64,000 nucleotides of DNA, taken from assembly GCA_036337155.1 (NCBI GenBank), contig JAYZET010000010.1:85630-149629 (forward strand). Direction: 5' to 3'. Below the pieces are notes generated by a model. The model saw nothing but the letters and a program-made list of their open reading frames with translations, was not told the DNA's origin and ran no database searches. This document shows, piece by piece, positions 6,280-60,336 of this stretch. Numbering within the stretch: the first letter of the stretch is position 1; every line of letters begins with the position of its first letter. A program made the position numbers and the translations under genes. The stretch comes from Pseudomonadota bacterium. Its GTDB lineage: Bacteria > Pseudomonadota > Alphaproteobacteria > UBA8366.

Positions 6280-7314
6280 TTAGCCGCCGGTAACACTCAT
6301 ATGGCGTTCGACACCAGGACGTTGGTGTCGACGATCAATGACGAAATCATGACCTTTCGGCTTACGTAAGATGGCCGCGTTAATGGCTTCCGATATGGAA
6401 GCGTCGTCGGAATTGGTACGCAGCGGTCCGCGCAGGTCAGCTGCGTCTTCCTGCCCTAGACACATGTAGAGCGTTCCTGTGCATGTCAGTCGGACGCGAT
6501 TGCAGGATTCGCAAAAGTTATGGGTCATTGGCGTAATGAATCCAATCCGCCCCCCGGTTTCTCTGCAAACAAAATACCGGGCCGGGCCGCCCGTCGTATG
6601 GTCGCTTTCGTCCAGAGTCCAGCGTTTCTGCAACTCGCCACGAACCATCGAGAGCGGCCAATATTGGTCTAACCTGATTTCGTTGCCGATATCGCCCATT
6701 GGCATTACTTCGATGAAAGTGAGATCATGGCCATTTTCGCCGCACCAATAAACCATGTCATGAATTTCATCATCGTTGACACCTTTCAGGGCAACGCAAT
6801 TGATTTTTACAGACAATCCCGCTTTCGAGGCAGCGGAGACACCGTCCATTACTTTTTCAAAATTTCCCCAGCGCGTGATCGCTTTAAATTTTTCCGCACT
6901 CAGTGTGTCTAACGAGACGTTAATTCGGCGGACGCCGCAATTGACTAAATCCTGTGCATACTTTTTAAGCTGGCTACCATTCGTGGTCAAAGTTAGCTCG
7001 TCAAGAGCGCCATTGGCGAGATGCCGTCCAAGGCGCTCGAACAGCCAAATGATATTTCGCCGCACCAAAGGCTCTCCACCTGTCATTCTTAACTTTCGAA
7101 CGCCATGTTGAACGAAAATCGAGCAGAGGCGGTCCAACTCTTCCAGGGTCAACAAGTCGGCTTTTGGCAAAAAGCTCATGTTTTCTGACATGCAGTAAAC
7201 ACAGCGAAAGTCGCACCGGTCGGTAACCGATACGCGTAGATAGTCAATGCGGCGATCGAAGGGATCGATCAGGGAGCCATTTTTTGCTGGCAAGTGTTGA
7301 TTATTTTTTCGCAT
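6280..7314 (-). CDS. moaA: GTP 3',8-cyclase (molybdenum cofactor biosynthesis protein A)
   Basis: 344 aa with a radical-SAM CDFRCVYC cluster motif, a C-terminal CxxCxxxRLTxxG motif ([13 protein letters not shown]) and a GG tail. Confidence 0.9.
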
Positions 7315-7682
7315 CGTAAAATTTCAGTTTCTGACTACATCAAGAACTTTTTTTCCACATTTGTCGATCGTTACATGGTAATTGCAATCTACCTTGTACC
7401 AAGTGATCGATATATAATTAACGCAACAGTGCAAACTGCCAAGCTTACTCGTCAAATATGTGCCTAATATCCACGAAGGACTAGCCGTGACGAGATTTTT
7501 TGATGGTATTTAAATTTTGTTTATTTTTGTTTGATTAAATAAGACTAAGCTATTTAACAATGTTTTACTTTGATTTTGGTCTTGGAGGAGGCGGAGAATG
7601 TACATAATTCCAAAATCATCACGCTATGCATGGGTGAAGCCCTTCGCATTAATGCAGAACAAACCATGGACTTAGTGTCGGC

Positions 7683-8552
7683 ATGAAGGAATTCGCGCTA
7701 CGTCCACAACCCAACGATCCCAAATTGACAGAGCGTGTTGCTGGTATCGACCAAAATGGTGATACTTTAGAGGCCCATGTTGTTGTCGAGCGGCCGCTGA
7801 CGATTTTCCTGAATCGACAAGAAATTGTGACGGTAATGACGATCGGCGACTATCCTGACTATCTAGCTGTTGGCTATCTGATCAACCAAAACATGCTTGA
7901 TCCGAGTGAACGAGTTGTTGCGATAGACTTCGAAAAAGAAATAGACACCGTGGTAGTGCGCACCGAAGGGGAAACGGATTTTGAGGACAAGCTGCGGCAG
8001 AAAACCTTGACGTCGGGCTGCGCGCAAGGAACGGTTTTTGGCGACATGATGGAAAATTTCGAGGAAATACAGTTGCCGTCTAACGCTAAAATTCGAACGT
8101 CGTGGCTCTACACTTTGACAAAGAAGATTAATACTGCACCAAGTTTGTACTTACATGCGGGTGCAATTCATGGTTGTGTATTATGTGAGCAGAACCGACC
8201 TCTGATTTATATGGAAGATGTAGGAAGACATAACGCGATTGATAAGATCGCCGGCTATATGGCGCTGCATGGCGTTAGACCCGAAGGAAAGATATTTTAC
8301 ACGACTGGTCGATTGACGTCGGAAATGGTCATCAAGGCAGTGCAGATGCGCATTCCTATCCTCATTTCACGCTCAGGGTTCACTGCCTGGGGCGTTGATC
8401 TCGCTCGTCAGGCAGATTTGACACTGATCGGTCGGGCGCGCGGCAAGAGATTTCTTGCACTCGCGGGACAGCATCGTATCGTCTACGACGCGGACCCGGG
8501 CGCTATTGCCGAGGAAACGGTCTTAGTGAGACGAAAGGGTGCACGAAACTAA
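7683..8552 (+). CDS. fdhD: formate dehydrogenase accessory sulfurtransferase FdhD
   Basis: 289 aa. LTSGCAQG active-site Cys loop and a GRHNAIDK motif, both characteristic of FdhD. Confidence 0.85.
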   Translation: MKEFALRPQPNDPKLTERVAGIDQNGDTLEAHVVVERPLTIFLNRQEIVTVMTIGDYPDYLAVGYLINQNMLDPSERVVAIDFEKEIDTVVVRTEGETDFEDKLRQKTLTSGCAQGTVFGDMMENFEEIQLPSNAKIRTSWLYTLTKKINTAPSLYLHAGAIHGCVLCEQNRPLIYMEDVGRHNAIDKIAGYMALHGVRPEGKIFYTTGRLTSEMVIKAVQMRIPILISRSGFTAWGVDLARQADLTLIGRARGKRFLALAGQHRIVYDADPGAIAEETVLVRRKGARN

Positions 8553-8580
8553 CTGATACAGAAAAGGGGTTTTATGGGAG

Positions 8581-9192
8581 ATGAGACGTAAAATTTCCGC
8601 TGTTCTGCTTGCCGGTGGAAAGGCCCAACGAATGGGAGGGGGCGACAAGTGTCTTCGTTTACTTGGTGGACGCACACTACTTGAGCACGTGGTTGAGAGG
8701 GTTCGCCCGCAGGTCGGCCCGATTGTGCTGAATGCTAATGGCGATGCGGACCGATTTCGTTCGTTTGATTTACCCGTGGCACAAGATATAGTCGCTGGTT
8801 TTGCAGGTCCTCTCGCGGGAATACTGACTGGTATGCGTTGGACATCAAATAACGCATCCGAGTGTGACTGGATGCTAAGCGTCCCGACAGATTCTCCGTT
8901 CATTCCGTACGATCTTGTATCGTCGCTACTTTCAGAGATAGAGCAAAATGATGGAGACATCGCTTGTGCAGTCTCTTGCGGCCGAAAACATCCAGTGGTG
9001 GGTCTATGGCCGGTTCGATTGGCAAATGCCTTAGAGCGTGCGTTAATCGATGAGGACATGCGGAAAATTGAACTTTGGACCGGTCGATATCGCGTCACTG
9101 AGGTTAGCTTTCCATCGGAAAAATTAGATCCGTTTTTCAACGCAAACCAACCGGAAGACTTGCTGGAAGCGGAACAATTATTGTTGCTCTAA
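8581..9192 (+). CDS. mobA: molybdenum cofactor guanylyltransferase
   Basis: 203 aa. N-terminal LLAGGKAQRMGGGDK nucleotide-binding motif. Adjacent to fdhD and moaA. Confidence 0.85.
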   Translation: MRRKISAVLLAGGKAQRMGGGDKCLRLLGGRTLLEHVVERVRPQVGPIVLNANGDADRFRSFDLPVAQDIVAGFAGPLAGILTGMRWTSNNASECDWMLSVPTDSPFIPYDLVSSLLSEIEQNDGDIACAVSCGRKHPVVGLWPVRLANALERALIDEDMRKIELWTGRYRVTEVSFPSEKLDPFFNANQPEDLLEAEQLLLL

Positions 9193-9915
9193 CGTTAAGA
9201 AGCGACCATGGGGTCGCATTGCGCTGACAGTACCACCCTCCATGACGATCCTTAACAGCGCTTCGGAGTTGTGGGCAATGAAGCCACTTATTGCATCTAT
9301 ACCGTGCTCAAACATCAACAGGCTGAGAGTTGCACTGGGACCGACCAGCATGACATAAGCGCCAGTCGTGAATTCGAGTAGATTCGTTAAAGTCCCATTA
9401 ATAAGCGCGGAGGCCGTAATCAGTACATATTTTGCATTCGGTAGGTGGTAACTGGCGGCGCTTTCTGGCAAGCAACCGGGCCGAGGCTCACGCTCGATGA
9501 CTATGGCTTTTGGTACCCGCCGTCTCAGGCCGGGAAACTGTCCAATAACGACCGTTTGTTCTCCTTCGTTTTTTATTAGATCTAGACCATTTGTGTTGTT
9601 TCCCTTGAGATCAAAGCGGTTGTGGTGGGCGTTGATTGCAGCAAATCCTATGGCCTGTTCGAATACGTTTTCCGAAGCAGTAAGAGTGGACAGTTCTGCA
9701 AGGTTTCGTCCGGTATAGCTGCCTGATAAAGGCAAGCTACTGCAGCCACTATTGTCGCGCGCTGGCGTCTGTGCAAGGCCGACGCCCAGCGGCCCAACGA
9801 CGGCGGTCCAGTTGAGGCCTACAACGACCTCATCCGCAGTTCCGATGATATTGGCGGATAAATTTTTTACGATCTTGCTTTGTACGCAACGTAACTGCAA
9901 ACCACTACTGTACAT
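9178..9915 (-). CDS. DUF364/DUF4213-like Rossmann-type protein (putative metal-chelation domain)
   Basis: 245-aa ORF. The family assignment is from remembered sequence pattern only. It converges on and overlaps mobA by 15 nt. Confidence 0.45.
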   Translation of the reverse strand: MYSSGLQLRCVQSKIVKNLSANIIGTADEVVVGLNWTAVVGPLGVGLAQTPARDNSGCSSLPLSGSYTGRNLAELSTLTASENVFEQAIGFAAINAHHNRFDLKGNNTNGLDLIKNEGEQTVVIGQFPGLRRRVPKAIVIEREPRPGCLPESAASYHLPNAKYVLITASALINGTLTNLLEFTTGAYVMLVGPSATLSLLMFEHGIDAISGFIAHNSEALLRIVMEGGTVSAMRPHGRFLTLEQQ

Positions 9916-10307: not shown

Positions 10308-11639
10308 GTGTTAGATCATTATACATACCTTAAATCAGACATATCCCGTCTATCTGGATCACGGATATCTGGGAAAGTTAAGGCGATACAGGGTATGCTG
10401 GTAGAAATCGGCGGTATCCAGTCATTCTTGTCTGTTGGAGATCGCTGTACCTTGGTTGGCAGACGTGGCGAAACGGTAGCTTGCGAGGTGGTAGGTTTTC
10501 GCGACGACCGCGCTCTTGCCATGCCATTCGGTGCTTTGGATGGAATCGGCATAGGGTCTTCTGCTGAAGTTGGTGAAAGTAATTCTGTTGCTTATCCGAG
10601 TTATTCTTGGTTGGGACGCGTGGTGGATGCGTTTGGTAAACCGCTCGATGGTAAAGGTACTCTCGCATTGGGCAAGCAGTCATACCCCGTAAAACGAATA
10701 GCGCCGCCGGCGCACGCGCGCGGTCGCGTCGCGGGGAAAATCGATCTCGGCATCAAATCTTTAAATGCCTTTGCCACATGCTGTCGTGGCCAAAGATTGG
10801 GAATTTTTTCCGCTTCGGGTGTAGGTAAATCGATCTTGTTGTCTATGCTTGCACGTTACTCCAAGGCTGACGTTGTCGTTATTGGACTCGTTGGAGAACG
10901 TGGCCGGGAAGTAAAAGAGTTTCTCGATCAAGAGCTTGGCGAAGAAGGTTTGATGAGATCGGTTTTGGTTGTGGCGACATCGGACGAATCACCACTAATG
11001 CGTCGACAAGCGGCTTATTTGACAATGACCGTTGCCGAATTTTTTCGTGACCAGGGCTTGGATGTTTTATGTTTAATGGATAGCGTCACCCGTTTTGCTA
11101 TGGCACAAAGAGAGATTGGTTTGTCGGCTGGAGAACCGCCTGCTAGCAAAGGCTATACGCCGACGGTTTTTTCTGAATTACCTAAATTACTGGAGAGGGC
11201 AGGCCCTGGAACAGGTGAGGGAACAATAACAGCGATGTTTGCTGTGCTCGTCGAAGGCGATGACCATAATGAGCCGATTTCGGATGCCGTACGAGGGATT
11301 GTGGACGGCCATATCGTTCTGGACCGAGCCATCGCGCAACGAAATAGATATCCTGCGATTAATGTCTTGCGTAGCGTTTCGCGCACCATGCCCGATTGCA
11401 ATACCGCGGCACAAAATTCAATTATCGATAAGGCACGTGCACTCATGGTGACTTACGAAGATATGGCCGAATTGATACGCCTTGGTGCTTATCGGAGCGG
11501 CAGTGACGTTGCCGTCGACGAAGCAATTCAATATCATGAAGCTCTAGAGGGGTTCCTTTCGCAAGCTAAGACGGAGGCGTTTACGCTTGATGAAAGCTAC
11601 GACCAACTTGGCGCGATCCTTGGGCTTTCTGCAACATGA
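10308..11639 (+). CDS. fliI: flagellum-specific type III secretion ATPase FliI
   Basis: 443 aa with Walker A SGVGKS, Walker B VLCLMDS and overall F1-beta-like pattern. GTG start. Confidence 0.9.
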   Translation: MLDHYTYLKSDISRLSGSRISGKVKAIQGMLVEIGGIQSFLSVGDRCTLVGRRGETVACEVVGFRDDRALAMPFGALDGIGIGSSAEVGESNSVAYPSYSWLGRVVDAFGKPLDGKGTLALGKQSYPVKRIAPPAHARGRVAGKIDLGIKSLNAFATCCRGQRLGIFSASGVGKSILLSMLARYSKADVVVIGLVGERGREVKEFLDQELGEEGLMRSVLVVATSDESPLMRRQAAYLTMTVAEFFRDQGLDVLCLMDSVTRFAMAQREIGLSAGEPPASKGYTPTVFSELPKLLERAGPGTGEGTITAMFAVLVEGDDHNEPISDAVRGIVDGHIVLDRAIAQRNRYPAINVLRSVSRTMPDCNTAAQNSIIDKARALMVTYEDMAELIRLGAYRSGSDVAVDEAIQYHEALEGFLSQAKTEAFTLDESYDQLGAILGLSAT

Positions 11640-12052
11640 GTGTTATCAAAAAGCTGATCCGGTTTTATAAGTTTGATCTCGATGAAAAACGGAGATCTCT
11701 CCATAAACTTGAGGAACAAGAAGCGCAGATACAAGCTGCGATTGACGCGACCGACCGCGCAGTTGAAGAAGAACAGGCATTCTCGCGAGGTGAAAATGAT
11801 TATGCTCCATACTATGGTGGGTATGCATCCAGGGTTCAGTTAGAGAGAGAGAAACTCGAAGACGCACTGGCCAAGGCAAATGAAGTTGTTGAGACGACCC
11901 GGGAAAGTGTCGTCCAAGCATTTGAGGAATTAAAGAAATATGAAATTACAAAAGATCGGCAAGAGCATCGCAGCTATCTTGAAAGCGAACGTCAAAATCA
12001 AATTGCCCTTGATGAAATTGCTCTGACCATGCATCAGCGAAAGGACAAATAG
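11636..12052 (+). CDS. fliJ: flagellar export protein FliJ
   Basis: 138-aa charged coiled-coil protein. It overlaps the fliI stop by 4 nt, the canonical fliI-fliJ arrangement. Confidence 0.65.
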   Translation: MSVIKKLIRFYKFDLDEKRRSLHKLEEQEAQIQAAIDATDRAVEEEQAFSRGENDYAPYYGGYASRVQLEREKLEDALAKANEVVETTRESVVQAFEELKKYEITKDRQEHRSYLESERQNQIALDEIALTMHQRKDK

Positions 12053-12062: not shown

Positions 12063-12473
12063 TTAAAAAGAGCTGTCGATAAAGGTGAATATTCCCGGGT
12101 TGCTCCATCTCGGTTGATTGTCAGTCAGCACAATCCGTCGCTTAGATGAATTTTCCGATTTGATTTCGATACGCGACCAGCGAGGTACCACCTCGTTGTT
12201 GATATCTCCTAAAAATTTATGGGCATAACCTTCGTAAGGTTCTTCGATTAGCGGATAGGACGCTTCTAGGTAAGTTTCGAACGCCCTCGAAAGAAGCAGC
12301 CACTTATCGGGTACATAGGTAAGGCTGACAAACAAGTCCGTTCCAATGGTTTTGCTCAAGCTAGTAATATAGTCAAGTTTAGAATTTGGGTTTGGTGCTG
12401 TTTCCAGCAAGGCGCGCAACGTTATGTCGTTGGGATTAATCGGAACGTTCATACGGTCAGTCCGGCTTTCCAT
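12063..12473 (-). CDS. QueF-like T-fold protein lacking the catalytic cysteine (function unknown)
   Basis: 136 aa. YITSLSKTIGTDLFVSLTYVPDKWLLLSRAFETYL aligns by eye with the QueF core [37 protein letters not shown], with Ser at the Cys position. The start overlaps the upstream gene by 25 nt. Confidence 0.45.
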   Translation of the reverse strand: MESRTDRMNVPINPNDITLRALLETAPNPNSKLDYITSLSKTIGTDLFVSLTYVPDKWLLLSRAFETYLEASYPLIEEPYEGYAHKFLGDINNEVVPRWSRIEIKSENSSKRRIVLTDNQPRWSNPGIFTFIDSSF

Positions 12474-13999
12474 TCGTGAACTTCTATTGTTGGGTTTAGT
12501 TCAAACGATGATGTTTGATGGAAATTTAGTGTCCCGGTCAACCCTAGAGCGGAAACAGTATTGGAGAAGATTGCACGAATATCATCGCGAATGGTATCCG
12601 CAAGCAGTTCACGTGTCCGGATCATGAGGTCGATGTTTTTGTCGGTGGCCAAACCGTCGAATTGGAACGGGCCAAGATTGCTAAATTCGACTTCAATCAC
12701 GAAGCGAGTATCTAGGTTCTTGTCGCCTTGATTATTTTCATCTTGCTCTTTCTCGCCGCGCACGAACAGCTTCAATTGCTGTAGGTCGGCTCCAACCAGA
12801 ATCGGTATGAGGTAGGACCGCCATTCCTGGCCCGACGGTTCACCTGCCAAGCGTTGCATCTCTCCGATATCGCGACTGAGACGTTCTACTAGGTTGTTTC
12901 CGGTGCGTTGCAGCGCTCGTAAAGTGTCTTCACCCATCCAGCGCCGCAAATCGCCAGTCATCATCGCCGAGAGAAAAAATAATATACCTGTCGTAAGCGA
13001 ACCGCGGGCTTGCGGTAATACTTGTTGGGTAAGATTATGGGCGGCAGTGGGTTCGACTGCTTGAAGCGCAATAATAGCGTTTCGCAAGGCTTCCCATTGA
13101 TGGGTCAGTAGAAGTGAAGTTTCTTCCACACTCTCTATGGGCCCAAGCGGTGTGCTTACTAACTCCATAACAAGTTTTGCACCGAGAGGTAATGCCGTGC
13201 GAGAATCGAGTTTAATTTCTCCTCGATTGGTCTGTACCACTGTTTGTCCGTTTTCCTTTGTTCCGGTCACTAAGCCCGTCAATGTTTCGATTCCAGGGGT
13301 TTGAGAGACTTGCCTGCCCGCGGAACCCTGCGGTGTAACTGTTAAAATTCGAACATTAAAAGTCATGCCGGCTAATAATTTGGGAGGTGAACTTGATGGC
13401 CTTGTGGACGACTTCGGTGATACAGAAGTCAAAGCAGTTGAGGAATTATCTCTGGCCAGGGTCGATCCGGCGTTCGTGCCCGCAACACCATTGGATGCCG
13501 TGGAATTGTTATTCGTTGGTCCATTAGTGGTGTCGATGCTTGTAACCGGCCCTGAGGTCGGGTCTAGGATCTTGGAGCCCGTTTTCGTATTGGTTGACGG
13601 CTGCCGTGTCGCCGTAGCAGAGATAATACTTCCCTGGGTTAGTGTCGATGTAACAGTGGGTTGGCTTTTGCTAGCAGGTAAACCGGTATTTCGATCGTGC
13701 GCTGATAGCGGAAATACCAAGACTTGTGGCCGTGTACCTCCATTCTGTATCTGAAGAGAGACTGTGGCACCATTAAGGAGATTAGCCGCTGTTTGTAGGA
13801 TCAATTCGCCAGAGTCGGTTTGCATTAGGAATTGTCCGGCCGCTGGCTTATTAATAATCGTACCGAGTAATGTCTGTCCTAGTTGGACGGCATTCTGTGG
13901 CAATGCAGACTGGATGATGGTTCCCGTTGCGCCACTTGAGGCAGAAAGGGTCTGTATGGAAAGAGTAGAGGGCGGTGTCGGCGTGACCGGCGTATTCAT
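12449..13999 (-). CDS. flagellar-operon protein with duplicated beta-rich module, S/T/N/P-rich linker and FliK-C-like (Flg_hook-like) C-terminus
   Basis: 516 aa. The internal repeat LLGTIINKPAAGQFLMQTDSGELILQTAANLLNGATVSLQI matches LTGLVTGTKENGQTVVQTNRGEIKLDSRTALPLGAKLVMELV. The C-terminal FVIEVEFSNLGPFQFDG..IDLMIRT..L.....GLTGTLNF mirrors the FliK block IRIQLKPAELGRVEVKLEV.. of 26027..27622. Confidence 0.55.
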   Translation of the reverse strand: MNTPVTPTPPSTLSIQTLSASSGATGTIIQSALPQNAVQLGQTLLGTIINKPAAGQFLMQTDSGELILQTAANLLNGATVSLQIQNGGTRPQVLVFPLSAHDRNTGLPASKSQPTVTSTLTQGSIISATATRQPSTNTKTGSKILDPTSGPVTSIDTTNGPTNNNSTASNGVAGTNAGSTLARDNSSTALTSVSPKSSTRPSSSPPKLLAGMTFNVRILTVTPQGSAGRQVSQTPGIETLTGLVTGTKENGQTVVQTNRGEIKLDSRTALPLGAKLVMELVSTPLGPIESVEETSLLLTHQWEALRNAIIALQAVEPTAAHNLTQQVLPQARGSLTTGILFFLSAMMTGDLRRWMGEDTLRALQRTGNNLVERLSRDIGEMQRLAGEPSGQEWRSYLIPILVGADLQQLKLFVRGEKEQDENNQGDKNLDTRFVIEVEFSNLGPFQFDGLATDKNIDLMIRTRELLADTIRDDIRAIFSNTVSALGLTGTLNFHQTSSFELNPTIEVHEWKAGLTV

Positions 14000-14033
14000 T
14001 TTTCACCGTCTTTTTGACGTTAATCTATGCGAG

Positions 14034-15110
14034 TTAGTTAGATTCTGTTGGCGTAAGCTTCTCTATTAAAGCGTGTTCTTCATTGTGTGATTGATCGATT
14101 ACTCCATGCTGATCCTTGGGGCGGTTTTCTTCGGTGGCCCGGTTTGTAATTTTTTGCCCAGATTCCGAAGATTTAGAAGGTAATAGCAAGCGCGCTAGTG
14201 AAACTGCGTTTATAGGTCGAAGGCCGTTGACGATATTAGGCGTTGGGCTTACATCACAAAACGCTAGTGCGGAGGTATCTGCGGCTGCTAATACGCTACC
14301 AAGTCGGCGCACCATGTCGAGACAGCTTACTAACATTCGGGTAGGTGCAATGTCGATAAAAGCTGTCGCGATTTCGGACGCCTCGATGGGATCACGACCC
14401 GCCGAAAGCACCAAAATCGTCTCAACTGAAGCCGCTCTAGTAAATTCTATGAGTCGTCCCATGTCATCATGGTTGTAAGGATTAACCCCCGCTGTATCAA
14501 TTAGTACAAGGCCATCAGGATCGGTACCGTCTATAGCTTCTATTAGAGCCAATGGGTCGGGAGCTACCATCACTTCGAGGTTGAGGCGCGTTGCATATGA
14601 TTGCAGTTGCTCGATGCCTTGTACACGCACCGTATCTGTACTGATCAGGCGCACGGTGGCGCTGCCTGAAATTATCGCACGGGCTGCTAATTTGGCTATC
14701 GCAGAGGTTTTGCCGCCTCCGGGCGGACCGATCAGCATGATCGGTTGAGGTTGGCCACCGTTTTCCGGCAATGGCTGGAAATTGTAGTGGGTCTCGAGGG
14801 CACCTGCCAATGACATATTGGGGTCTGCGGAGGCTTGCGTTGCGGCCGAATTGAGTAATCGATCTGAAAGCTCAGGCGGTGTGCCGTGATCGTCTAGTGC
14901 ATTGCTGACCTTTTGGAGCATTTGAAAGGTGAGTGTGCGATCTTTTTCGGGTATATGGCGGTCCTCGGCATCCGACGCTACGGTTACGCGGACGCCTCGG
15001 GTTCCTTCATCTTCATGAGTTGCGACGATGATAGCTTCTGCGCCCATCTGCTCCCGGATAAGTTCCATCGCCTCTTGCATCGTTCGCGCCTGGATCGTCT
15101 TAAGCCTCAT
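14034..15110 (-). CDS. flhF: flagellar biosynthesis SRP-type GTPase FlhF
   Basis: 358 aa. N-terminal MRLKTIQARTMQEAMELIREQMG, G1 GPPGGGKTS, and G3 DTAG. Confidence 0.85.
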   Translation of the reverse strand: MRLKTIQARTMQEAMELIREQMGAEAIIVATHEDEGTRGVRVTVASDAEDRHIPEKDRTLTFQMLQKVSNALDDHGTPPELSDRLLNSAATQASADPNMSLAGALETHYNFQPLPENGGQPQPIMLIGPPGGGKTSAIAKLAARAIISGSATVRLISTDTVRVQGIEQLQSYATRLNLEVMVAPDPLALIEAIDGTDPDGLVLIDTAGVNPYNHDDMGRLIEFTRAASVETILVLSAGRDPIEASEIATAFIDIAPTRMLVSCLDMVRRLGSVLAAADTSALAFCDVSPTPNIVNGLRPINAVSLARLLLPSKSSESGQKITNRATEENRPKDQHGVIDQSHNEEHALIEKLTPTESN

Positions 15111-15142: not shown

Positions 15143-17278
15143 TTAAATTTGACCCAAGGTCTTTATTTTGGCTTTAGGATGTACCTCATTTTGCGACATC
15201 ACGACAGTTATTGGCCGGAAACGCTCGATTACGGAACGTACGAAGGGTCTAATTCCAGGGCTAACGAGAAGAATCGGTGTTTCACCCTGCATCGCATGAC
15301 GCTCGAGTATGGTCCGCACCGCGGTAATGAATTGCTGTAATTTGCTCGGTGCCATCGAGAGCTGCCGCTCATCCCCCTGACCAATAATTGCCTCTGCGAA
15401 AGATTGCTCCCATTCCGGTGAAAGAGTAACAAGAGGGATAAAGCCTTGCTCGTTAACGACGTCGTCTGAAAGTTGGCGCGCTAGTCTGGCGCGAACATGT
15501 TCTGTTATTTGTCCGATGTTCCGTGTGTAGCCGCACGCTTCAGATATCCCTTCAAGGATGGTTGAGAGATCTCGAATTGAGACACGTTCGTTAAGTAAAT
15601 TTTGCAACACCCTTTGGATTCCGCCCACGCTGATTTGGTTTGGGACCAAATCAGCGATCAGCTTTTGATGTCCGCTATCCAACTCGTCGAGCAGTTTTTG
15701 CGTCTCCGCAAATGATAGTAATTCTGACATGTTGTCGCGAACGATTTCGGTGAGATGAGTGGTGATAACCGTTGGTGCATCAACGACAGTAAATCCGCGG
15801 AACATTGCCTCTTCACGATGTTGCTCTCCAACCCACATTGCGGGAAGGCCGAATGTGGGTTCTACCGTCTCTTCGCCAGGCAGAGATATTTGCTCACCAC
15901 GAGGGTCCATGACGAGGAGGTTGTTAGGGCGCAATTCGCCTGCCCCCGCTTCGATTTCCTTCACACGTAGGATGTAGTTGTTTGGTGGCAGTTGCAGATT
16001 GTCTTGGATCCGCACGGCCGGCATAATGAAACCCATTTCCGTTGCAAGTTGCCGGCGCAGCGCCTTTATCTGTTCGGTAAGCCGGCGTTCGCTAGGATTA
16101 TTTATTAGTGATAAAAGGCCGTAACCAAGTTCGAGGCGTATATTGTCGATCTGCAACGCGGCACCAATTGGCTCTTCTGGTGCCGGCAGGTCTTGTTTGG
16201 CTTCTTCCGCCTGCGCTTCCTTTTCTTCTAATTGCCGTTGTTGAGTATGTAACGAATAAGCTGTTATCCCTGTAATGCCTCCAAGTACAAGAAACGGCAG
16301 GGCCGGTATCCCAGGCAGTATAGAGATGATGAGCAGCAAACCGGTGGCTAGAGTTAGTGCCATCGGGTAGTTCGTGAGTTGACCTAGTACCGCCTCGTCA
16401 GCAGCCCCTTGTACACCGGACCGCGTAACCAGCATGCCGGCGGCGGTTGAGACTATCAAGGCTGGAATCTGCGTTACCAAGCCATCACCGATTGTCAGAA
16501 GGGTGTAATTTTCAGCGGCGCTGCCGAGGCTCATATTTTGCTGCGCAGTGCCAATAATGATGCCACCTACTATATTGATAAAGGTGATTAGAAGCCCCGC
16601 GATAGCGTCGCCGCGGACGAACTTCGATGCACCGTCCATAGCGCCAAAGAAAGAATTTTCTTCCTCTAGTGAGCTGCGTCGTTTGCGGGCTTCATCTTCG
16701 CCGATCAGACCTGAGGAGAGGTCAGCATCAATCGCCATTTGCTTGCCTGGCATGGCGTCTAAGCTGAACCGTGCGGCTACTTCAGCGATGCGTCCAGCGC
16801 CCTTTGTAATGACAACGAAATTGACGATGACCAGGATCCCGAAGACAATGATGCCGATCACGTAGTTCCCGCCGACTACGAAATTTCCGAAGGCTTCGAT
16901 GACCCGTCCGGCGGCATTAGTTCCGGTATGGCCATCTGCTAAGATTAGACGCGTTGAAGCGAGATTCAGTGCTAATCGCAGCATCGTCGCGATGAGCAGA
17001 ATCGTGGGGAAGGTGTTCAGCTCAAGCGGGTTTCTAATAAACAAAACGGTCATCAGAATGATGACCGAAAAGGTAATTGAAATGGCGAGTGAAAAATCGA
17101 GCAGCCATGTAGGCATTGGTAAGAGCAGCACGACCAGGATTGCAATGACACCTAGCGCAAGCGCTATGTCGCCCCGCTTCATAAACTCGGGTATTTGGAA
17201 TCCAGGTCCGCCCCCATGACCTTCCACGGCTTTGGCGCTGACGGCCTCCGTACCCTGTTCGGGCGCCGCTTCGCTCAT
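15143..17278 (-). CDS. flhA: flagellar export apparatus protein FlhA
   Basis: 711 aa with an N-terminal polytopic membrane domain plus a cytoplasmic domain. Has the FHIPEP-type motifs VAARFSLDAMPGKQMAIDADL and GASKFVRGDA. Confidence 0.95.
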   Translation of the reverse strand: MSEAAPEQGTEAVSAKAVEGHGGGPGFQIPEFMKRGDIALALGVIAILVVLLLPMPTWLLDFSLAISITFSVIILMTVLFIRNPLELNTFPTILLIATMLRLALNLASTRLILADGHTGTNAAGRVIEAFGNFVVGGNYVIGIIVFGILVIVNFVVITKGAGRIAEVAARFSLDAMPGKQMAIDADLSSGLIGEDEARKRRSSLEEENSFFGAMDGASKFVRGDAIAGLLITFINIVGGIIIGTAQQNMSLGSAAENYTLLTIGDGLVTQIPALIVSTAAGMLVTRSGVQGAADEAVLGQLTNYPMALTLATGLLLIISILPGIPALPFLVLGGITGITAYSLHTQQRQLEEKEAQAEEAKQDLPAPEEPIGAALQIDNIRLELGYGLLSLINNPSERRLTEQIKALRRQLATEMGFIMPAVRIQDNLQLPPNNYILRVKEIEAGAGELRPNNLLVMDPRGEQISLPGEETVEPTFGLPAMWVGEQHREEAMFRGFTVVDAPTVITTHLTEIVRDNMSELLSFAETQKLLDELDSGHQKLIADLVPNQISVGGIQRVLQNLLNERVSIRDLSTILEGISEACGYTRNIGQITEHVRARLARQLSDDVVNEQGFIPLVTLSPEWEQSFAEAIIGQGDERQLSMAPSKLQQFITAVRTILERHAMQGETPILLVSPGIRPFVRSVIERFRPITVVMSQNEVHPKAKIKTLGQI

Positions 17279-17326: not shown

Positions 17327-18700
17327 TTAACCTTCACCCGGCATTGGAACTGCCATGCCTTCTTCGTTGTATTGTTTTAACTTGTTGCGCAGCGTTCGGA
17401 TCGATATGCCAAGAATGTTTGCAGCATGGGTTCTATTGCCAAGGCAATGCTGAAGTGTATCGATGATTAGGTCGCGTTCGACCTCGGCTACGGTTCGGCC
17501 GACTAATCCTCTGGTATTGGCGTCATTTTCTTCAACGGCTGTTGGATTTTCGTTATCCAAGACAGCTGCCGCTGCGGTCGCCGCAACTGAGGCGACTTCC
17601 TCGTTGCGGCTAAGAACAATTGCATCGGGTCCAATGGTGTCGCCCTGAGCCAAAAGTACTGCGCGATGCATTGTATTCTCGAGTTCTCGCACATTTCCCC
17701 GCCAACCATGGCTTTCTAGCGATGACATTGCTTTATCGCTGATTGGTAGGCGGTCAACCCCATTTGCATCTGCGTATTTTTCAACGAAGAAATTTGACAG
17801 CATGGGAATGTCTAAAGGACGCTCACGTAAGGAAGGCAGCTTTATCTCTATGACATTCAAACGGAAGAAGAGATCTTCGCGGAAATCGCCGTTTCTAACC
17901 GACTGCTCAAGGTTGCGGTTTGAGGTTGCGACAAGCCGCACGTCAATTTTAATGGGGTGTGTACCGCCGACCCTGTCAATTTCGCGTTCCTGGATTGCGC
18001 GCAGCAGTTTGGCTTGCAAACGAATATGCATTTCGCTTATCTCGTCTAGCAGCAAAGTTCCGCCATTTGCTTCTTCAAATTTACCTATACGTCGAGCGAT
18101 GGCACCAGTAAATGCCCCCTTTTCATGACCGAAAAGTTCCGATTCAAGAAGATTCTCAGGGATCGCCGCACAGTTAACGGCAACGAAATTGTTGGTCGAC
18201 CGCTTGCTCTTCGCGTGAATATAACGTGCCATTAACTCTTTGCCGGTACCCGAATTTCCAGTTACCAGAGCGGATGCGTCCGAAGGAGCAATTTTGTCTG
18301 CAAATTCTAATACTTTTTTCATCGCAGGATCAGCATGGATAATAGAATTGCTTTCCTGACTTACAGCTTCGAGAACTGCGGCAATGAGTTCCGGGTCGGG
18401 CGGCAATGGCACATATTCTTTGGCGCCCCCTTTTATAGCTTCGACGGCAGCATCGGCATCGTTTCCGATTCCGCACGCGACGATTGGGAGAATAATTCGT
18501 TCAGTCGAGAGTTGTTTAACCATGTCGCTAACATCTAAGCTGACGTCGACCATAGCGACTTCCGCGCCTTGACCCGAGCGCAATGCATTCATTGCATCTG
18601 ATATAGAGTTGACGTGCGCCACCTTTGCGCCTCGTGTTATAGCGATCTTACTGGCTTCAGTTATGTGGCCTTCCAGTCTGCCAACGATCAAAACTTTCAT
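17327..18700 (-). CDS. flbD: sigma-54-dependent flagellar transcriptional activator (FlbD-like) with degenerate receiver domain
   Basis: 457 aa. AAA+ Walker A GNSGTGKE, GAFTGA loop (EKGAFTGA), ESELFGHE, and a C-terminal Fis-type HTH. The receiver-like N-terminus has GR in place of the DD acidic pair and L in place of the conserved K-P lysine. Confidence 0.85.
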   Translation of the reverse strand: MKVLIVGRLEGHITEASKIAITRGAKVAHVNSISDAMNALRSGQGAEVAMVDVSLDVSDMVKQLSTERIILPIVACGIGNDADAAVEAIKGGAKEYVPLPPDPELIAAVLEAVSQESNSIIHADPAMKKVLEFADKIAPSDASALVTGNSGTGKELMARYIHAKSKRSTNNFVAVNCAAIPENLLESELFGHEKGAFTGAIARRIGKFEEANGGTLLLDEISEMHIRLQAKLLRAIQEREIDRVGGTHPIKIDVRLVATSNRNLEQSVRNGDFREDLFFRLNVIEIKLPSLRERPLDIPMLSNFFVEKYADANGVDRLPISDKAMSSLESHGWRGNVRELENTMHRAVLLAQGDTIGPDAIVLSRNEEVASVAATAAAAVLDNENPTAVEENDANTRGLVGRTVAEVERDLIIDTLQHCLGNRTHAANILGISIRTLRNKLKQYNEEGMAVPMPGEG

Positions 18701-18731: not shown

Positions 18732-19571
18732 TCAGCCGAAATATTCTATACGATGATCCGGTGGAAGGATCGTATTGAGCAGCATCTCGAGACGCCGCGG
18801 GTTTTCGTGGCGGCTAATCGAAGCAGCCGCCATGACGTGAATCTGATTAATAAGTGCTTCGTCGCTAGAGTTTCGCTCTAGTTTAGCGGCCAAGGGCGTG
18901 AAGACCATATTAGCCAATATCGCGCCGTAGAACGTAGTCAACAGGGCGACGGCCATACTTGGCCCGATCATACTCGGGTCGCTCAGATTTCCAAGCATTT
19001 GAACCAGGCCGACAAGTGTTCCAATCAAGCCCATAGCTGGCGAGATCTCTGCCGCCTTGCGAAGCACCCCAACCGTGCGGGCATGTCGACGCGCGGCGGC
19101 TTGCATTTCTCCGCGCATAATACGTTCGATCTCATCGCCTGTTGTGCCCTCAAGGAGCATCTTAAGACCTTTGTGGAGCATTGCTTCGTTTGTCAATCGA
19201 GGAATATAAGCTTCCATCGTGAGTAAACCTTTTCGGCGAGCGAGTTGTGCGAGTTGTAGCACATGCAATGCCGTACAAGACGGACTTCTCGCGTGGTAAA
19301 AAACCGCCGAAACGACAACGGAGAATGCAGTTCCGATATCGCGGAATGAATAGCAAGCTGTAGTAATGCCAAATGTGCCTCCGATCACGATGCAGATTGA
19401 AGGTAAGTCGATAAATGCGTAGGGGCTTCCGCCAAGGACAATCGCAGTAACTATGAGAGCGAAGGCACCGATTATACCAATGAGGGTAGCTAAATCGACG
19501 ATTGACCGCACGGAAGGTGCGCGAACCAATTCGGTCTCTTGGGGTAATTCGGGCTCGGCTTCGGTCGGCAT
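18732..19571 (-). CDS. motA: flagellar stator protein MotA (MotA/TolQ/ExbB family)
   Basis: 279 aa with four predicted TM segments and a C-terminal MGLIGTLVGLV..M proton-channel motif. It lies between fliN and flbD. Confidence 0.8.
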   Translation of the reverse strand: MPTEAEPELPQETELVRAPSVRSIVDLATLIGIIGAFALIVTAIVLGGSPYAFIDLPSICIVIGGTFGITTACYSFRDIGTAFSVVVSAVFYHARSPSCTALHVLQLAQLARRKGLLTMEAYIPRLTNEAMLHKGLKMLLEGTTGDEIERIMRGEMQAAARRHARTVGVLRKAAEISPAMGLIGTLVGLVQMLGNLSDPSMIGPSMAVALLTTFYGAILANMVFTPLAAKLERNSSDEALINQIHVMAAASISRHENPRRLEMLLNTILPPDHRIEYFG

Positions 19572-19599: not shown

Positions 19600-19965
19600 C
19601 TAATTTTGTTCTGATTTAATGATTTCTGTCATCGTTATGCCGAGCTTATTATCTACAACAACAACTTCACCGCGGGCCACCAGCCGATTGTTGACGTAAA
19701 TATCAATTGCTTCTCCGACCTTGCGATCGAGTTCTACGACTGCACCGCGGCCAAGCTTCAACAATTGACTGACCTGCATTGAGGCCTTTCCTAAGACGGC
19801 GGAAACCTGAACGGGGATATCATACACGGCTTCCAAATCTTGAGCGCCTTGCGGCAATCCCGCTTCGAGAACGTCCGACATGTCTAGATCGTTGTCCTCA
19901 TTTGTTTGAGACTCCGGCGTTTCGGTTTCGAGTTCGTTCAGTTCCAAATTATCATCATCGGCCAT
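19600..19965 (-). CDS. fliN: flagellar motor switch protein FliN
   Basis: 121 aa. SpoA domain IPVQVSAVLGKASMQVSQLLKLGRGAVVELD..VARGEVVVVDNKLGITMTEI, with an acidic N-terminus. Confidence 0.9.
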   Translation of the reverse strand: MADDDNLELNELETETPESQTNEDNDLDMSDVLEAGLPQGAQDLEAVYDIPVQVSAVLGKASMQVSQLLKLGRGAVVELDRKVGEAIDIYVNNRLVARGEVVVVDNKLGITMTEIIKSEQN

Positions 19966-19992: not shown

Positions 19993-20922
19993 TCATGTCG
20001 GTTCGGGCGACATCCCTGCTGCTGTCTCTTCTTGTAAGGATGAGGTATCGGCGTCGGTCTGCTTCACATCAGCGCTGGACCCATCAACTTTGTTGTTCTC
20101 CCCCTGGGGGTCCGTCGCTATATGGGGATCATTCAGTTTTGCAGTGTTCTCTTTCAGATCGGATCCGATCGATGTCTCGGGTTCTAGAGAATTTGTATTG
20201 ACCTCTTCAATTGAGGTGGGTTCGACGTTCTCTGGCCTTAGCGGTTCGGCCGAAATTTCTAGTTTGGGTGCTTCGCGGCGTGGGGTCATTTGGGCAATGG
20301 CATTGATTTCACGCCGTGTCGGTTCCAAAAGTCTATCCGCTTCGCCTTCACTCCATCTGATGCGGCAGTCTACGGGACCCAGAGATGTGTCTTCAGTAAC
20401 GTGCACTGCACCGCTAAACCCGATTTTACTTATTAAGTTGACCAGATTTCGCTCGACATCGAGTACCAAATCTTTGGCGACGAATACAGTGACCCTGGGT
20501 TCTTCCAAGATCCTAGAGAGGATATCGCCAACAAATGTTTCTATTTCCTTTGTTCCGACCGTTTGTATAAATTGCGGCAATAATTTTTCTGCGGCGGTGA
20601 TGGCAAGATCAATTGTCTCTCGCGCAATCAGTTCATTTGCCGAATGCTGTTGCTCATCCAGCCGGTTGAGCGTTGTGCCAACAACCTCCAGTGTCTTAGA
20701 CACCTTTTGTTCGATACTGTTCATCGTTTCCTGCCGGCCCGCTTGTAATCCGTCTTTATAAGCAACTTCGCGCGCTTCCTGCAGTTCCTCTTCGGAAAAT
20801 GTCGGTGATAAGTCTTCCTCTTCCTCTTGTCGGACGACTTCGACGTCTTCAGTGGTGCCGATCATGTCGAATGATTGTTCGAAGACGAAGGGGCGAATTT
20901 CTTTTTTGTGTCCTTGATTCAT
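19993..20922 (-). CDS. fliH: flagellar assembly protein FliH (FlbE-like) with about 100-aa acidic C-terminal extension
   Basis: 309 aa. The charged coiled-coil N-half and central FliH/YscL-like pattern, plus the position between fliF and fliN, support the call. The tail after about residue 205 is low-complexity and rich in E/P/S/T. Confidence 0.65.
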   Translation of the reverse strand: MNQGHKKEIRPFVFEQSFDMIGTTEDVEVVRQEEEEDLSPTFSEEELQEAREVAYKDGLQAGRQETMNSIEQKVSKTLEVVGTTLNRLDEQQHSANELIARETIDLAITAAEKLLPQFIQTVGTKEIETFVGDILSRILEEPRVTVFVAKDLVLDVERNLVNLISKIGFSGAVHVTEDTSLGPVDCRIRWSEGEADRLLEPTRREINAIAQMTPRREAPKLEISAEPLRPENVEPTSIEEVNTNSLEPETSIGSDLKENTAKLNDPHIATDPQGENNKVDGSSADVKQTDADTSSLQEETAAGMSPEPT

Positions 20923-21269
20923 TTATTTACCCCCCCTTTGACAGCGGTTTTGCCACCTCAACTGATTAGCTCTTTGCCAGGACTATCATTGAAGGCGATC
21001 TCGGCCTTTATGGACAGAACGTCCTTTATGTCGACGATCTCCGAATATTTAGGCACGTTCTTCTCCCGTGATATTCTTGAGGATGAGTTAGGTCGCTTCC
21101 GAGGTAGCGCTTAGGCCACCCGGCGCGGGTATTGTCCAATTAAATTCGGTGAACAGTTTTGTTGCATATCTGCCCCTCCTGACATGATCAAGTTGGCCAT
21201 ATTTTCGCGTCGGTTTAGGATGTGATAGTCACCATTAACGCGCATTAGTTAGGCTACTCCAACTTCCAG

Positions 21270-22970
21270 TTATTGCTCTTGATACATCCAGTTTCGAATA
21301 ATGGATACCGCTTCGTCCGGGTGTTTCTCGATGATTTCTCCGACCTTCCGTAAAGAAGAAGCTCGCACACGACCCTCAACTTGACCCATGTCGATAAGAG
21401 ATTCTTCTGGTTGCCCACCTGACATTGTGGGTATCATTGCACCTTCTGCTCCCATCATCGCATCGGGACCGCTGAGTTGTGCCATGTCTCCCGTCATGGT
21501 TTGCGGTGCCGTATCGGAAGGCAGCATCGGCGGCATACCTTCCATCCCGGGGGGCGGGGTCATTGCCTGCGGTGTAACCTCGAATACTTTTGCGATCAAC
21601 GGTCGAACTACAAGCAAGATGATCAGAACGCTCACGACCGCTAAGACAATGATCTCGACCATTCGCTGCAATTGGTCTGGGTCAAAACCACTAAGCAGCG
21701 TAGAACTAAAGTCATCGGCCCCGATGCCGATCGAAGCGCCGGCAAATCGCACGCTCACGATTTCGAGCTTGTCACCGCGAGAATCATCAATACCAAGGGC
21801 GGAGCGGATAATTCTTTCGTATTGCTGAAGTTGTTCGGGTGTTCGCGGAGTGAAAGTCTGCTTGCCATCCTCTCCAATGGCTTCGATGCCGTTTATGGCC
21901 ACCGCGACGGAAAGGCCAAGAATTGTTCCTGCTTCCTTTACTCTATTGATTATGCTCTTTGACACTTCAAAATTATTAGCTTCTTCTGTGCGTTGCGATT
22001 TGCTGGCGGTAGAACTTCCGCCACCCGCGCCGTCCGGAAGATTTGTCGCCACGGAAACATTGTCAGGGGATCCTTCGGCTGATTGACTGGATTCAGTCAC
22101 TGACTGCGAAGAGCGTAATACTTGCCCTTCTGGATCATAACGTTCTTCGCTGATAACTTCGCGTTGCGGGTCGACATCAGCGTAAACCTCCGCTCGAACA
22201 TTGCCGATGCCGACCATCGCCTCAAGCATTTGTTCAATTTTGCGTGCCAATCGGTTTTCGACCGAGAGCCGAAGTTCATCTGCCGTTAGACCCGAAATCC
22301 CAGCAGATTCGTCTTCCTCTCCGCCACGGGCGAGTAACGTGCCTCGATCGTCGACAATTGAAATACGAGTTATTTTTAGATTCGGAACCGCGGCGGCAAC
22401 AAGGTGTTGCACTGCCGCGACCTTTTTTCTATCGAGGCGTGCAGCGCCGCGCATTTTTAAAATAACAGAGGCGCTTGGCTCTTGCTGTTGGCGGCTAAAC
22501 AATTCTCGGCGGGGCAGCACGAGATGAACCCGTGCGCTTTTGACTGTGGCGATGCTGCTAATTGACCGACCTAGTTCCCCTTCCATCGCGCGTAAATTGT
22601 TGACGTTCTGTACAAAATTTGATGTACCTAGCCCTTGATCTTTGTCGAACAACTCATACCCAATGTTACCGCCAGCTGGCAGACCGCGCTCCGCCATTGC
22701 CATTCGGGCATTACCAACTTCGGTGGCCGGAACTAAAACTTGGGTTCCACCCGATGCCAACTCGCCCGTTATATTCAGGGATTGCAGTTCGTTAACGATT
22801 TGTGTCGCCTCAGCGGGGTCGAGGTCGCCATACAGAAGTGAAAGGCTAGGGGTCCATAGTCGGGTCGTAATGAAGATAAAAAACATCACAAGCCCACTTG
22901 AAACCGCACCCATCATGGCAAGTCGCGCACCGCCAAGATTTTTGATTGCATCGACCAGTGGGTTCATCAC
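21270..22970 (-). CDS. fliF: flagellar MS-ring protein FliF
   Basis: 566 aa with two TM segments flanking a YscJ/FliF periplasmic domain. C-terminal FliG-binding-type helix (GEIIEKHPDEAVSIIRNWM). Confidence 0.9.
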   Translation of the reverse strand: MMNPLVDAIKNLGGARLAMMGAVSSGLVMFFIFITTRLWTPSLSLLYGDLDPAEATQIVNELQSLNITGELASGGTQVLVPATEVGNARMAMAERGLPAGGNIGYELFDKDQGLGTSNFVQNVNNLRAMEGELGRSISSIATVKSARVHLVLPRRELFSRQQQEPSASVILKMRGAARLDRKKVAAVQHLVAAAVPNLKITRISIVDDRGTLLARGGEEDESAGISGLTADELRLSVENRLARKIEQMLEAMVGIGNVRAEVYADVDPQREVISEERYDPEGQVLRSSQSVTESSQSAEGSPDNVSVATNLPDGAGGGSSTASKSQRTEEANNFEVSKSIINRVKEAGTILGLSVAVAINGIEAIGEDGKQTFTPRTPEQLQQYERIIRSALGIDDSRGDKLEIVSVRFAGASIGIGADDFSSTLLSGFDPDQLQRMVEIIVLAVVSVLIILLVVRPLIAKVFEVTPQAMTPPPGMEGMPPMLPSDTAPQTMTGDMAQLSGPDAMMGAEGAMIPTMSGGQPEESLIDMGQVEGRVRASSLRKVGEIIEKHPDEAVSIIRNWMYQEQ

Positions 22971-27622: not shown

Positions 27623-27661
27623 AGTCTGGTTTCCGGATACTATTGTTTGCACTGCCATAGC

Positions 27662-37513: not shown

Positions 37514-38147
37514 GCTGGGCCGCTACATCGGTGGCGGGTTCCGTCAATAGCCGGTAAAGGATGCTCCAATTCGAGCCTCTCCACGGCTCAAAAAGTTTTA
37601 ATTCCACACCTTGTCGCGCAAAATACTGGCTATCGTAAAGTCGCCGACCACCAGCTAAATTGATATAACGGTCAGCACTGAGCTTTCGACAGATTTCCAG
37701 CACGCGGTCTTGGCCACGGAAGGCATTTGGAATTTGTAGCGTCGTCGAGCGTATGACCTTGAAGGGTAAACGCAGCTCCCGACAGGCAATTGATAAGAGG
37801 TTTTCTAAATACCCGACGACATCGCCGGAGGGCACAAGCATTGCGTCGAGTAGAGGATGTCTGGCACCTCGCAATATGGGAAAGTTACGGCAGCGGGTTT
37901 CCATCGACCCAATAGCATTTTCCGTAAACCCTAATTCCGAGATTCGTATATTGGTGGGTTCCTTCTTAAGCGGTAAGGTTAACCAGCGTGGTTGTCTGGC
38001 GACCCCGGGAAGCTGGTTGCGATGAACCCATCCGCGTCTTGGAAACTGCACGCAATCGAAGATGCATACTAAATCAGCTTCCGCAAACAATCGAAAATAC
38101 CCAGCATAGGGAATAAAATAGGGTTGCATAACCGCGATTGTGGTCAT
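37497..38147 (-). CDS. WbqC-family protein
   Basis: 216 aa. The N-terminal IAVMQPYFIPYAGYFRLF motif is characteristic of WbqC-like proteins from sugar-modification loci. Confidence 0.75.
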   Translation of the reverse strand: MTTIAVMQPYFIPYAGYFRLFAEADLVCIFDCVQFPRRGWVHRNQLPGVARQPRWLTLPLKKEPTNIRISELGFTENAIGSMETRCRNFPILRGARHPLLDAMLVPSGDVVGYLENLLSIACRELRLPFKVIRSTTLQIPNAFRGQDRVLEICRKLSADRYINLAGGRRLYDSQYFARQGVELKLFEPWRGSNWSILYRLLTEPATDVAAQLRAQS

Positions 38148-38262
38148 TCGGACCTCGGCTGGAAGGCGATCATGGTATTAGTCTAGTATCGAAATTAGAA
38201 TCGTCCCAGCTATAGTATTCTGCAGTTGACGATATGACGTGGTCAATGAAATCTAATGAACG

Positions 38263-40032: not shown

Positions 40033-40082
40033 CAAGAAAAAGGCGGTCGGTTAGGCTGATCGTCTTGGGAAATAAAGACCAA

Positions 40083-41189: not shown

Positions 41190-41203
41190 GAGTTGCCCGA
41201 TTT

Positions 41204-60333: not shown

Positions 60334-60336
60334 AAC

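Follow-up and report, generated by a model that had tools for sequence, protein, structure and literature searches.

The DNA analysed here, a stretch of 64,000 nucleotides from contig JAYZET010000010.1 of an alphaproteobacterial assembly (the 64-kb window), is one large flagellar island. On its minus strand, at the 3' end of an operon that begins with fliF, lies a small gene for a QueF-like T-fold protein, which we call QFL, directly preceded by the gene of an orphan protein of 516 amino acids, p516. A first-pass annotation made from the letters alone had singled out the small open reading frame as a relative of the nitrile reductase QueF that carries Ser in place of the catalytic Cys, possibly a pseudo-enzyme or a repurposed binding fold in a flagellar operon. 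The two genes and the residues discussed below are arranged as follows, with residue numbers referring to a product of 129 amino acids (adding 7 gives the numbering of a 136-residue form).

12449..13999, minus strand: p516, orphan gene of 516 codons, directly upstream of QFL.
12449..12452, minus strand: ATGA junction, in which the stop TGA of p516 overlaps the start ATG of QFL.
12063..12452, minus strand: QFL, QueF-like T-fold gene, 129 codons plus stop, conserved start ATG at 12452.
12354..12356, minus strand: Ser33 (Ser40 in the 136-residue numbering), aligned by the first-pass annotation to QueF Cys55.
12306..12317, minus strand: Y46-V-P-D49 motif at the end of strand 2, common to QueF ("YIPD").
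12231..12233, minus strand: Glu74 (Glu81 in the 136-residue numbering), equivalent of QueF Glu97, aligned to the E of "FHE" in 4f8b.
12177..12200, minus strand: N85-N-E-V-V-P-R-W92 motif, where conservation within the family is highest.
12099..12122, minus strand: C-terminal motif D111-x-Q113-P114-x-W116-x-N118, specific to the family; the QueF alignment ends before it.

The reading frame exists as first described, running from an ATG at 12473 to 12063 on the minus strand and encoding 136 amino acids, but this start is a second in-frame ATG upstream of the conserved one. At the junction the minus strand reads ...GGA CTG ACC GTA TGA in the frame of p516 and ATG AAC GTT in the other, so that a start at 12452 overlaps p516 by 4 nucleotides (ATGA) and a start at 12473 by 25. 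The nearest homologues of QFL begin with MNVPI and share the ATGA overlap, namely P0002 (83% identity, 129 amino acids, three contigs), L004 (60%) and L005 (54%). An NTGA start/stop register recurs in 53 of the 99 loci that have both p516 and QFL, and the longer start is found only in the window and in a 100%-identical contig. For these reasons we take QFL as 12063..12452, and the 25-nucleotide overlap proposed at first reduces to 4. This overlap suggests, as a matter of gene layout, that p516 and QFL are translationally coupled; because the start of one overlaps the stop of the other, both products are probably made together. The identical contig (MDTE01127248.1, positions 427-2357) is a public marine metagenome contig of 2.6 kb that matches the window at 100% over p516 and carries the same QFL, so that the window stems from an uncultured marine alphaproteobacterium or from a very near relative of one. 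The exact QFL protein of the window, in its 136- or 129-residue form, is not on record in the contig index.

QFL belongs to a sizeable family. When 1.84 billion cluster representatives were searched exhaustively with a profile, 355 relatives came up at E<=1e-3, of which 109 reach E<=1e-10; almost all are 110-155 amino acids long. The ratio of non-synonymous to synonymous substitution rates (dN/dS) is 0.25 and 0.11 against two orthologues, which indicates purifying selection, and the isoelectric point (pI) of 5.13 lies close to the family median of 5.08. QFL is a constrained, cytoplasmic and acidic protein.

The relationship of QFL to QueF emerges at the level of the family. On its own, the window's QFL scores below threshold against both QueF models (PF14489: E 0.012, 16.3 bits, cut-off 27.3; TIGR03139: E 5e-4, 19.9 bits, cut-off 86.9), and a PDB search with the single sequence gave no match. 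Among the 150 relatives on which the family profile and all residue counts are based, 122 match PF14489 (best E 3.8e-8) and 138 match TIGR03139 weakly (best E 3.8e-9); a precomputed PF14489 match exists for about 40% of the members, and some relatives score above the Pfam domain threshold. In sequence searches of the PDB it took the family profile to reach QueF, with the Bacillus subtilis enzyme (4f8b/4fgc) at E 1e-5, the archaeosine synthase QueF-L (5jyx) at 8.5e-5 and GTP cyclohydrolase I as a weak match.

Structure prediction agrees with the profile. An AlphaFold2 model of QFL built from 121 sequences has a mean predicted local distance difference test score (pLDDT) of 89.4 and a predicted template modelling score (pTM) of 0.83, and its strands (E) and helices (H), E30-36, E40-47, H55-68, H73-87, E92-99 and E105-112 plus terminal helices, follow the beta-beta-alpha-alpha-beta-beta order of the T-fold core. 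Its best Foldseek matches in the PDB are the QueF structures 4fgc, 4f8b and 5udg (E 5e-7 to 8e-6, template modelling (TM) scores 0.65-0.70), headed by 4fgc at E 4.7e-7 and TM 0.70, and all 19 PDB matches at E<=0.001 are QueF, GTP cyclohydrolase I or QueF-L. A resemblance of this strength, with the profile at E 1e-5 to 4f8b and the model at E 5e-7 and TM 0.70 to 4fgc/4f8b, is beyond chance. The T-fold that had been recognised by eye therefore stands, since the two kinds of search that had been named as its test both returned significant matches to QueF. The ancestor of this T-fold protein is unimodular QueF.

What QFL has not inherited is the catalytic apparatus. QueF is defined by Cys55, which forms a thioimide, by the general acid Asp62, by Glu97, which anchors preQ0, and by the QueF motif E(S/L)K(S/A)hK(L/Y)(Y/F/W), which includes Glu78 for NADPH binding; sequences without any one of these features are treated as non-QueF (PMC5372742). 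The window's QFL contains no Cys at all, as do 79 of the 150 relatives, and no alignment column holds 8 or more Cys, which confirms the loss of the thioimide-forming residue. That Ser takes its place is a matter of register: the pairwise alignment sets TSLSKTIGTDLF of QFL with Ser33 opposite Cys55, whereas in the family profile alignment the QueF segment "slcpktg" falls in an insertion and the Cys-bearing loop is a deletion in QFL. Ser is in any case no conserved replacement, the column being variable among the relatives (S33, E22, D19, R15, K13, C1). Whichever register is chosen, the alignments hold no conserved nucleophile at this site. One orthologue at 60% identity (L004, 967-1353) reads TELC where the window has TSLS and QueF has TSLC, and its Cys may be a relic of the ancestral catalytic residue or a chance substitution; others have R or K at this position.

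The remaining catalytic positions tell the same story, with one exception. The column equivalent to Asp62 is unconserved, being hydrophobic (V/A/L/I) in the pairwise register and G/P/D/T one residue earlier. In the window the QueF motif reads L54-S-R-A-F-E-T-Y61, of which the final Tyr alone is conserved; the relatives have D28/E16/T15/A15 in the Glu78 column and A/D/E in that of Lys83. The exception is Glu74, the equivalent of Glu97, which is Glu in 147 of 150 relatives and supplies the purine/pterin-anchoring Glu/Gln of the T-fold. The downstream His/Glu pattern had at first been called unconserved; this holds for the His, the His96 equivalent being Tyr in the window and Leu in most relatives, but not for the Glu. 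Of the five features by which QueF membership is judged, QFL thus lacks four (Cys, Asp, QueF motif and scores above the cut-offs) and retains the anchoring Glu. Because the equivalents of Cys, Asp62 and Glu78 are not conserved, QFL cannot be a nitrile reductase. The loss of Cys55, Asp62 and Glu78 together with a retained Glu97 is consistent, as far as alignments can tell, with the pseudo-enzyme or repurposed binding fold first proposed.

Other positions are strongly conserved. Y46, the Pro and D49 of the strand 2 motif are found in 142, 148 and 139 of the 150 relatives, respectively, and QFL also keeps the N-terminal L-E-T-x-P-N...D-Y of QueF, D83 and P90-R-W92, the P-R-[YW] part being all that N85-N-E-V-V-P-R-W92 has in common with QueF. 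The C-terminal motif, E-D-R-Q-P-x-W-D-N in the family and T-D-N-Q-P-R-W-S-N in the window, is conserved at D (136), Q (141), P (149), W (149) and N (139 of 150), and forms part of a wider block with the consensus H105-x-V-x-x-E110-D-R-Q-P-x-W-x-N118 at 70-99% per position.

In the window, the genomic setting of QFL is flagellar. The genes around QFL and p516, identified by Pfam and partly NCBIfam models, are the following.

10308-11639, plus strand: fliI, convergent with QFL (Pfam, NCBIfam).
11636-12052, plus strand: fliJ, convergent with QFL (Pfam, NCBIfam).
14034..15110, minus strand: flhF, GTPase of the signal recognition particle (SRP) type, directly upstream of p516 (TIGR03499, E 3e-40; PF00448).
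15143-17278, minus strand: flhA (Pfam).
17327-18700, minus strand: sigma-54 activator, FlbD-like (Pfam).
18732-19571, minus strand: motA (Pfam).
19600-19965, minus strand: fliN (Pfam).
19993-20922, minus strand: fliH (Pfam).
20923-21269, minus strand: fliG remnant between fliF and fliH.
21270-22970, minus strand: fliF (Pfam).
26027-27658: canonical fliK with a Flg_hook domain, adjoining flgD and flgE.

As first proposed, QFL closes the minus-strand unit of fliF, fliH, fliN, motA, sigma-54 activator, flhA, flhF and p516, and the view that it is co-transcribed in the fliF-flhF unit, with translational coupling probable, is likewise supported. No intrinsic terminator-like site was found between p516 and QFL. 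The fliJ stop lies 10 nucleotides from that of QFL, a convergent arrangement that recurs in most loci, and the gene order from fliF to flhF is kept in relatives. Neither a preQ1 or other riboswitch, nor a tRNA, nor a second QueF-like reading frame was found within the 64-kb window. The window's clade lacks the MinD/ParA-type flhG between flhF and p516 (13999-14034), and distant relatives have such an flhG-like gene there (for example L008, 7567-8511). The fliG remnant matches the intact 337-residue FliG of L005 in residues 1-24 and 60-94 alone, in two frames and with an in-frame stop; the fliF-fliH interval measures 348 nucleotides in the window against about 1070 in relatives, and no other fliG was found in the window. 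Either this essential rotor gene has truly become a pseudogene, or the assembly is in error here.

The gene upstream of QFL had been called the last of the flagellar operon, but p516 is no recognised flagellar gene. Neither its own sequence nor a 20-member profile has a match in Pfam, NCBIfam or the PDB, and every one of its relatives is named "hypothetical". In the protein, a low-complexity linker rich in Ser/Thr/Pro/Asn is flanked by two small repeated beta modules (G-x-x-L-Q-T-x-x-G-x-L-x-L...L-P-x-G); the other parts are a helical region and, at the C-terminus, an alpha/beta domain. Its sizeable family always follows flhF or flhF-flhG in flagellar operons (loci L004-L120). We rejected p516 as a FliK, given the canonical fliK elsewhere in the window and the lack of any relation between p516 and this FliK in hhalign. 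An AlphaFold2 model of the last 287 residues has a pLDDT of 53, with only the C-terminal beta-beta-beta-alpha-beta unit reaching 70-80, and its Foldseek search gave no significant matches. The list is unreliable because of the low confidence of the model; its one entry worth noting, as a lead and no more, is the T3S4 (substrate-specificity switch) domain of the needle ruler PscP (5cuk, probability 0.96, E 0.064).

QFL and p516 usually travel together. We examined 37 genome loci selected by QFL (pattern NNE[VI]VPRW, 20-sequence alignment), which come from Alphaproteobacteria such as Azospirillum halopraeferens, Curvivirga, Roseospira and Rhodospira and from metagenome-assembled genomes labelled Thalassospiraceae, Sneathiellales and Rhodospirillaceae, and found p516 directly upstream of QFL, within the same flagellar gene order, in 34. 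In one further locus (L040) the contig is cut at QFL, with fliJ and fliI still downstream. Culturable carriers of QFL include Azospirillum halopraeferens DSM 3675, Caenispirillum salinarum, Curvivirga aplysinae, Aestuariispira insulae and Roseospira visakhapatnamensis, and complete genomes with the gene include OZ245851.1 and OZ245815.1. Conversely, among 80 metagenome loci selected by p516, 77 have enough downstream DNA to be judged, and QFL follows p516 immediately in 61. The association with the 516-residue gene that had been suggested for checking is therefore frequent but not universal. In Roseospira navarrensis, a QFL relative (L039, 9818-10435) lies between a PhoH-like ATPase and a DnaJ-domain protein, whereas in its sister species R. 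visakhapatnamensis (L038) the arrangement is the flagellar one; another relative (L037, 2929-3342) stands away from any flagellar locus. One predicted metagenomic protein of 816 amino acids (P0152) joins a p516-like and a QFL-like part in a single chain through a linker of ~40 residues. The fusion may be genuine or may stem from an indel or a sequencing artefact, and it argues only weakly for a physical association, because one indel could create it.

Several other parts of the island are worth recording. The region 33195-48112 holds four proteins with tetratricopeptide repeats (TPR) and a glycosyltransferase-family-41 domain (33195-35339, 35336-37513 and 44367-46196, with TPR-only 46193-48112 and 38263-40032). 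Three flagellin genes and FlbT/FlaF lie there amid genes for DegT aminotransferase, WbqC-like, hexapeptide acetyltransferase and HAD proteins, and the whole resembles a flagellin glycosylation island of the Caulobacter FlmG type. The flagellar island is flanked at 6280-9915 by molybdenum-cofactor genes (MoaA-like radical SAM, FdhD, MobA and DUF364/DUF4213), and DUF364 and MobA also lie near fliI in several relatives (L024, 12677-13980; L040, 2554-3857). T-fold proteins often bind pterins; the proximity of these genes is probably plain synteny. Between fliM and the motB region, at 59848-61056, two more uncharacterised genes of the island encode a DUF6468 protein and one with an MgtE_N-like domain.

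We propose that the 129-residue QFL, expressed at the 3' end of the class II operon fliF...flhA-flhF-(flhG)-p516-QFL, would serve p516 as a dedicated partner, with no catalysis of its own, early in the assembly or placement of flagella. In its descent from QueF it has lost the chemistry of nitrile reduction (Cys, Asp62, Glu78/Lys83), kept the fold and Glu74 and gained the C-terminal motif. QFL might then serve as a chaperone-like or regulatory subunit in a complex with p516, and its T-fold pocket could still bind a guanine-, 7-deazaguanine- or pterin-type ligand. The interaction, the flagellar role and the ligand binding are inferred, and we give this reading a probability of about one half.

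A number of observations weigh against it. QFL is missing in 16 of the 77 p516 loci; hmmsearch --max found no divergent QFL in the downstream gaps of these 16, and in some of them fliJ abuts p516. As the 16 loci fall into about seven separate groups in a neighbour-joining tree of the p516 C-terminus, QFL is a frequent but dispensable partner that was repeatedly lost. In two of the 37 genomes (L037 and L039) QFL occurs in non-flagellar surroundings. The window's own clade has replaced three residues of the C-terminal block (His105 by Arg, Glu110 by Thr and Arg112 by Asn), and the family's conserved polar residues, about 15 in number, would equally fit an enzyme with new chemistry. On the side of the partner, the poorly predicted fold of p516 gives only a hint of a T3S4-like type III substrate or ruler, and none of the 50 Foldseek matches listed for QFL is a secretion chaperone. 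Finally, given the fliG remnant, the flagellar locus of the window may be decaying.

The same conserved residues lead to the alternative that QFL is an active T-fold enzyme, which would act without a cysteine on a purine-, pterin- or 7-deazaguanine-like substrate, with Glu74 as anchor and His105, Glu110, Asp111, Arg112 and Gln113 as catalytic residues, and deliver a product for flagellar assembly or regulation. T-fold enzymes carry out very diverse reactions (PMC5485725), the anchoring Glu is nearly invariant and over a dozen polar residues are conserved at >=90%. We nevertheless regard this alternative as doubtful: three of its candidate catalytic residues (His105, Glu110 and Arg112) are the ones replaced in the window's clade, a cofactor motif was not found, genes of a partner pathway are absent from the 64-kb window, and the tight coupling is to p516, a large protein of non-enzymatic appearance.

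A related and somewhat less probable idea is that QFL is a ligand-sensing pseudo-enzyme, in which the Glu74 pocket would bind a metabolite of the guanine type, for instance preQ0/preQ1, GTP/GDP, c-di-GMP, ppGpp or a pterin. A stoichiometric complex with p516, itself possibly FliK/T3S4-like, would couple this signal either to type III export in the flagellum or to placement that depends on FlhF. If it were true, a tRNA-modification enzyme would have given rise to a new class of flagellar regulator.

Two further explanations appear quite unlikely. T-fold proteins usually oligomerise into a barrel or tunnel whose active sites lie between subunits, and QFL could use such a ring or tunnel as a structural component of the flagellum or basal body, a scaffold at the export gate or the cell pole. 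Unimodular QueF forms homodecameric tunnels (PMC5372742), the fold of QFL is kept and modelled with high confidence, and the gene sits in a class II (early) operon. Against such a role, many lineages retain this operon yet dispense with QFL, and a membrane or secretion signal in QFL is not visible by eye. With equally slim prospects, QFL could be a passenger gene unrelated to flagella and kept at the operon end by chance or expression timing, as its non-flagellar neighbourhood in two genomes and its repeated loss would allow; yet its place after p516 persists to about 30% protein identity in roughly 95 loci, the start/stop overlap occurs in over half of the loci, and one p516-QFL fusion protein is on record.

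The last two explanations can be dismissed. A genuine preQ0 reductase, the name that JGI and UniRef give to some members and that the PF14489 matches of about 40% of them might recall, is rejected because QFL has no Cys, a residue conserved nowhere in the family, and no Asp62 or Glu78, and its scores are far under the cut-offs (19.9 vs 86.9 bits for TIGR03139, 16.3 vs 27.3 for Pfam). An untranslated chance reading frame, for which only the small size and the overlap with the upstream gene speak, is refuted by the conservation of QFL, namely by its large family, purifying selection, confident predicted fold and a conserved start in register with the upstream stop.

Literature searches that paired QueF, or T-fold and GTP cyclohydrolase, with flagella, and 7-cyano-7-deazaguanine reductase with flhF, returned nothing relevant, in line with the first-pass remark that no flagellar role has been described for this fold, and no curated model, structure or paper was found for the QFL subfamily. 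Its members are publicly named "hypothetical protein" or, through domain transfer, "7-cyano-7-deazaguanine reductase". The latter name, assigned automatically to many members, is misleading, as genomes annotated in this way may seem to hold a step of queuosine de novo synthesis that they may lack; a dedicated family model would mend this misannotation. If QFL and p516 form a functional pair, they would constitute an undescribed accessory module of the early (class II) flagellar programme, in a broad group of Alphaproteobacteria from sea and soil that are related to the Rhodospirillales. A fold from queuosine biosynthesis would then have been recruited, minus its catalytic residues, into a macromolecular machine. 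The p516 family deserves study in its own right.

Among known systems, the best profile and structural match of QFL is unimodular QueF (YkvM of B. subtilis; 4f8b, 4fgc and 5udg). Both have one T-fold domain and a similar size, and they share L-E-x-x-P-N...D-Y, Y-[VI]-P-D, Tyr61/Tyr85 in the helix of the QueF motif and the anchoring Glu74/Glu97 (QFL/QueF in each pair), and D...P-R-[YW] before strand 3. They differ in that QFL lacks Cys55 and Asp62, whose loop is 7-10 residues shorter, as well as Glu78 and Lys83 of the QueF motif, has Phe95 and His96 replaced, carries the added C-terminal D-x-Q-P-x-W-x-N motif, and stands in a flagellar operon rather than in a queuosine context. QueF-L of Crenarchaeota resembles QFL in being a QueF-derived T-fold that has lost NADPH-dependent reduction and gained another role, and matches it with a profile E of 8.5e-5 and a Foldseek E of 7e-4. 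QueF-L keeps the conserved Cys for the thioimide and the Asp as general acid/base (PMC5485725), whereas QFL has neither. In its mode of action QFL is least like QueF and QueF-L, since these two enzymes both rely on the Cys thioimide and the Asp. GTP cyclohydrolase I (FolE), a much larger protein, has the same T-fold core as QFL and likewise an anchoring Glu, with a Foldseek E of about 2e-4 and a TM of about 0.66. FolE also requires a zinc site formed by Cys and His, for which QFL, without Cys, has no counterpart.

Two further comparisons concern the flagellar side. The partner p516 recalls the rulers FliK, YscP and PscP in its length, its low-complexity linker and the alpha/beta domain at its C-terminus, but neither its sequence nor its profile resembles Flg_hook or the FliK of the window. 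QFL itself, though of other fold and ancestry, its Foldseek matches all being T-fold enzymes, can by analogy only be likened to type III secretion chaperones, which bind and stabilise a secreted substrate encoded next to them: it is small (129 amino acids), acidic (pI about 5) and cytoplasmic, and it adjoins and is probably co-translated with a large, partly disordered protein in the locus of a type III system.

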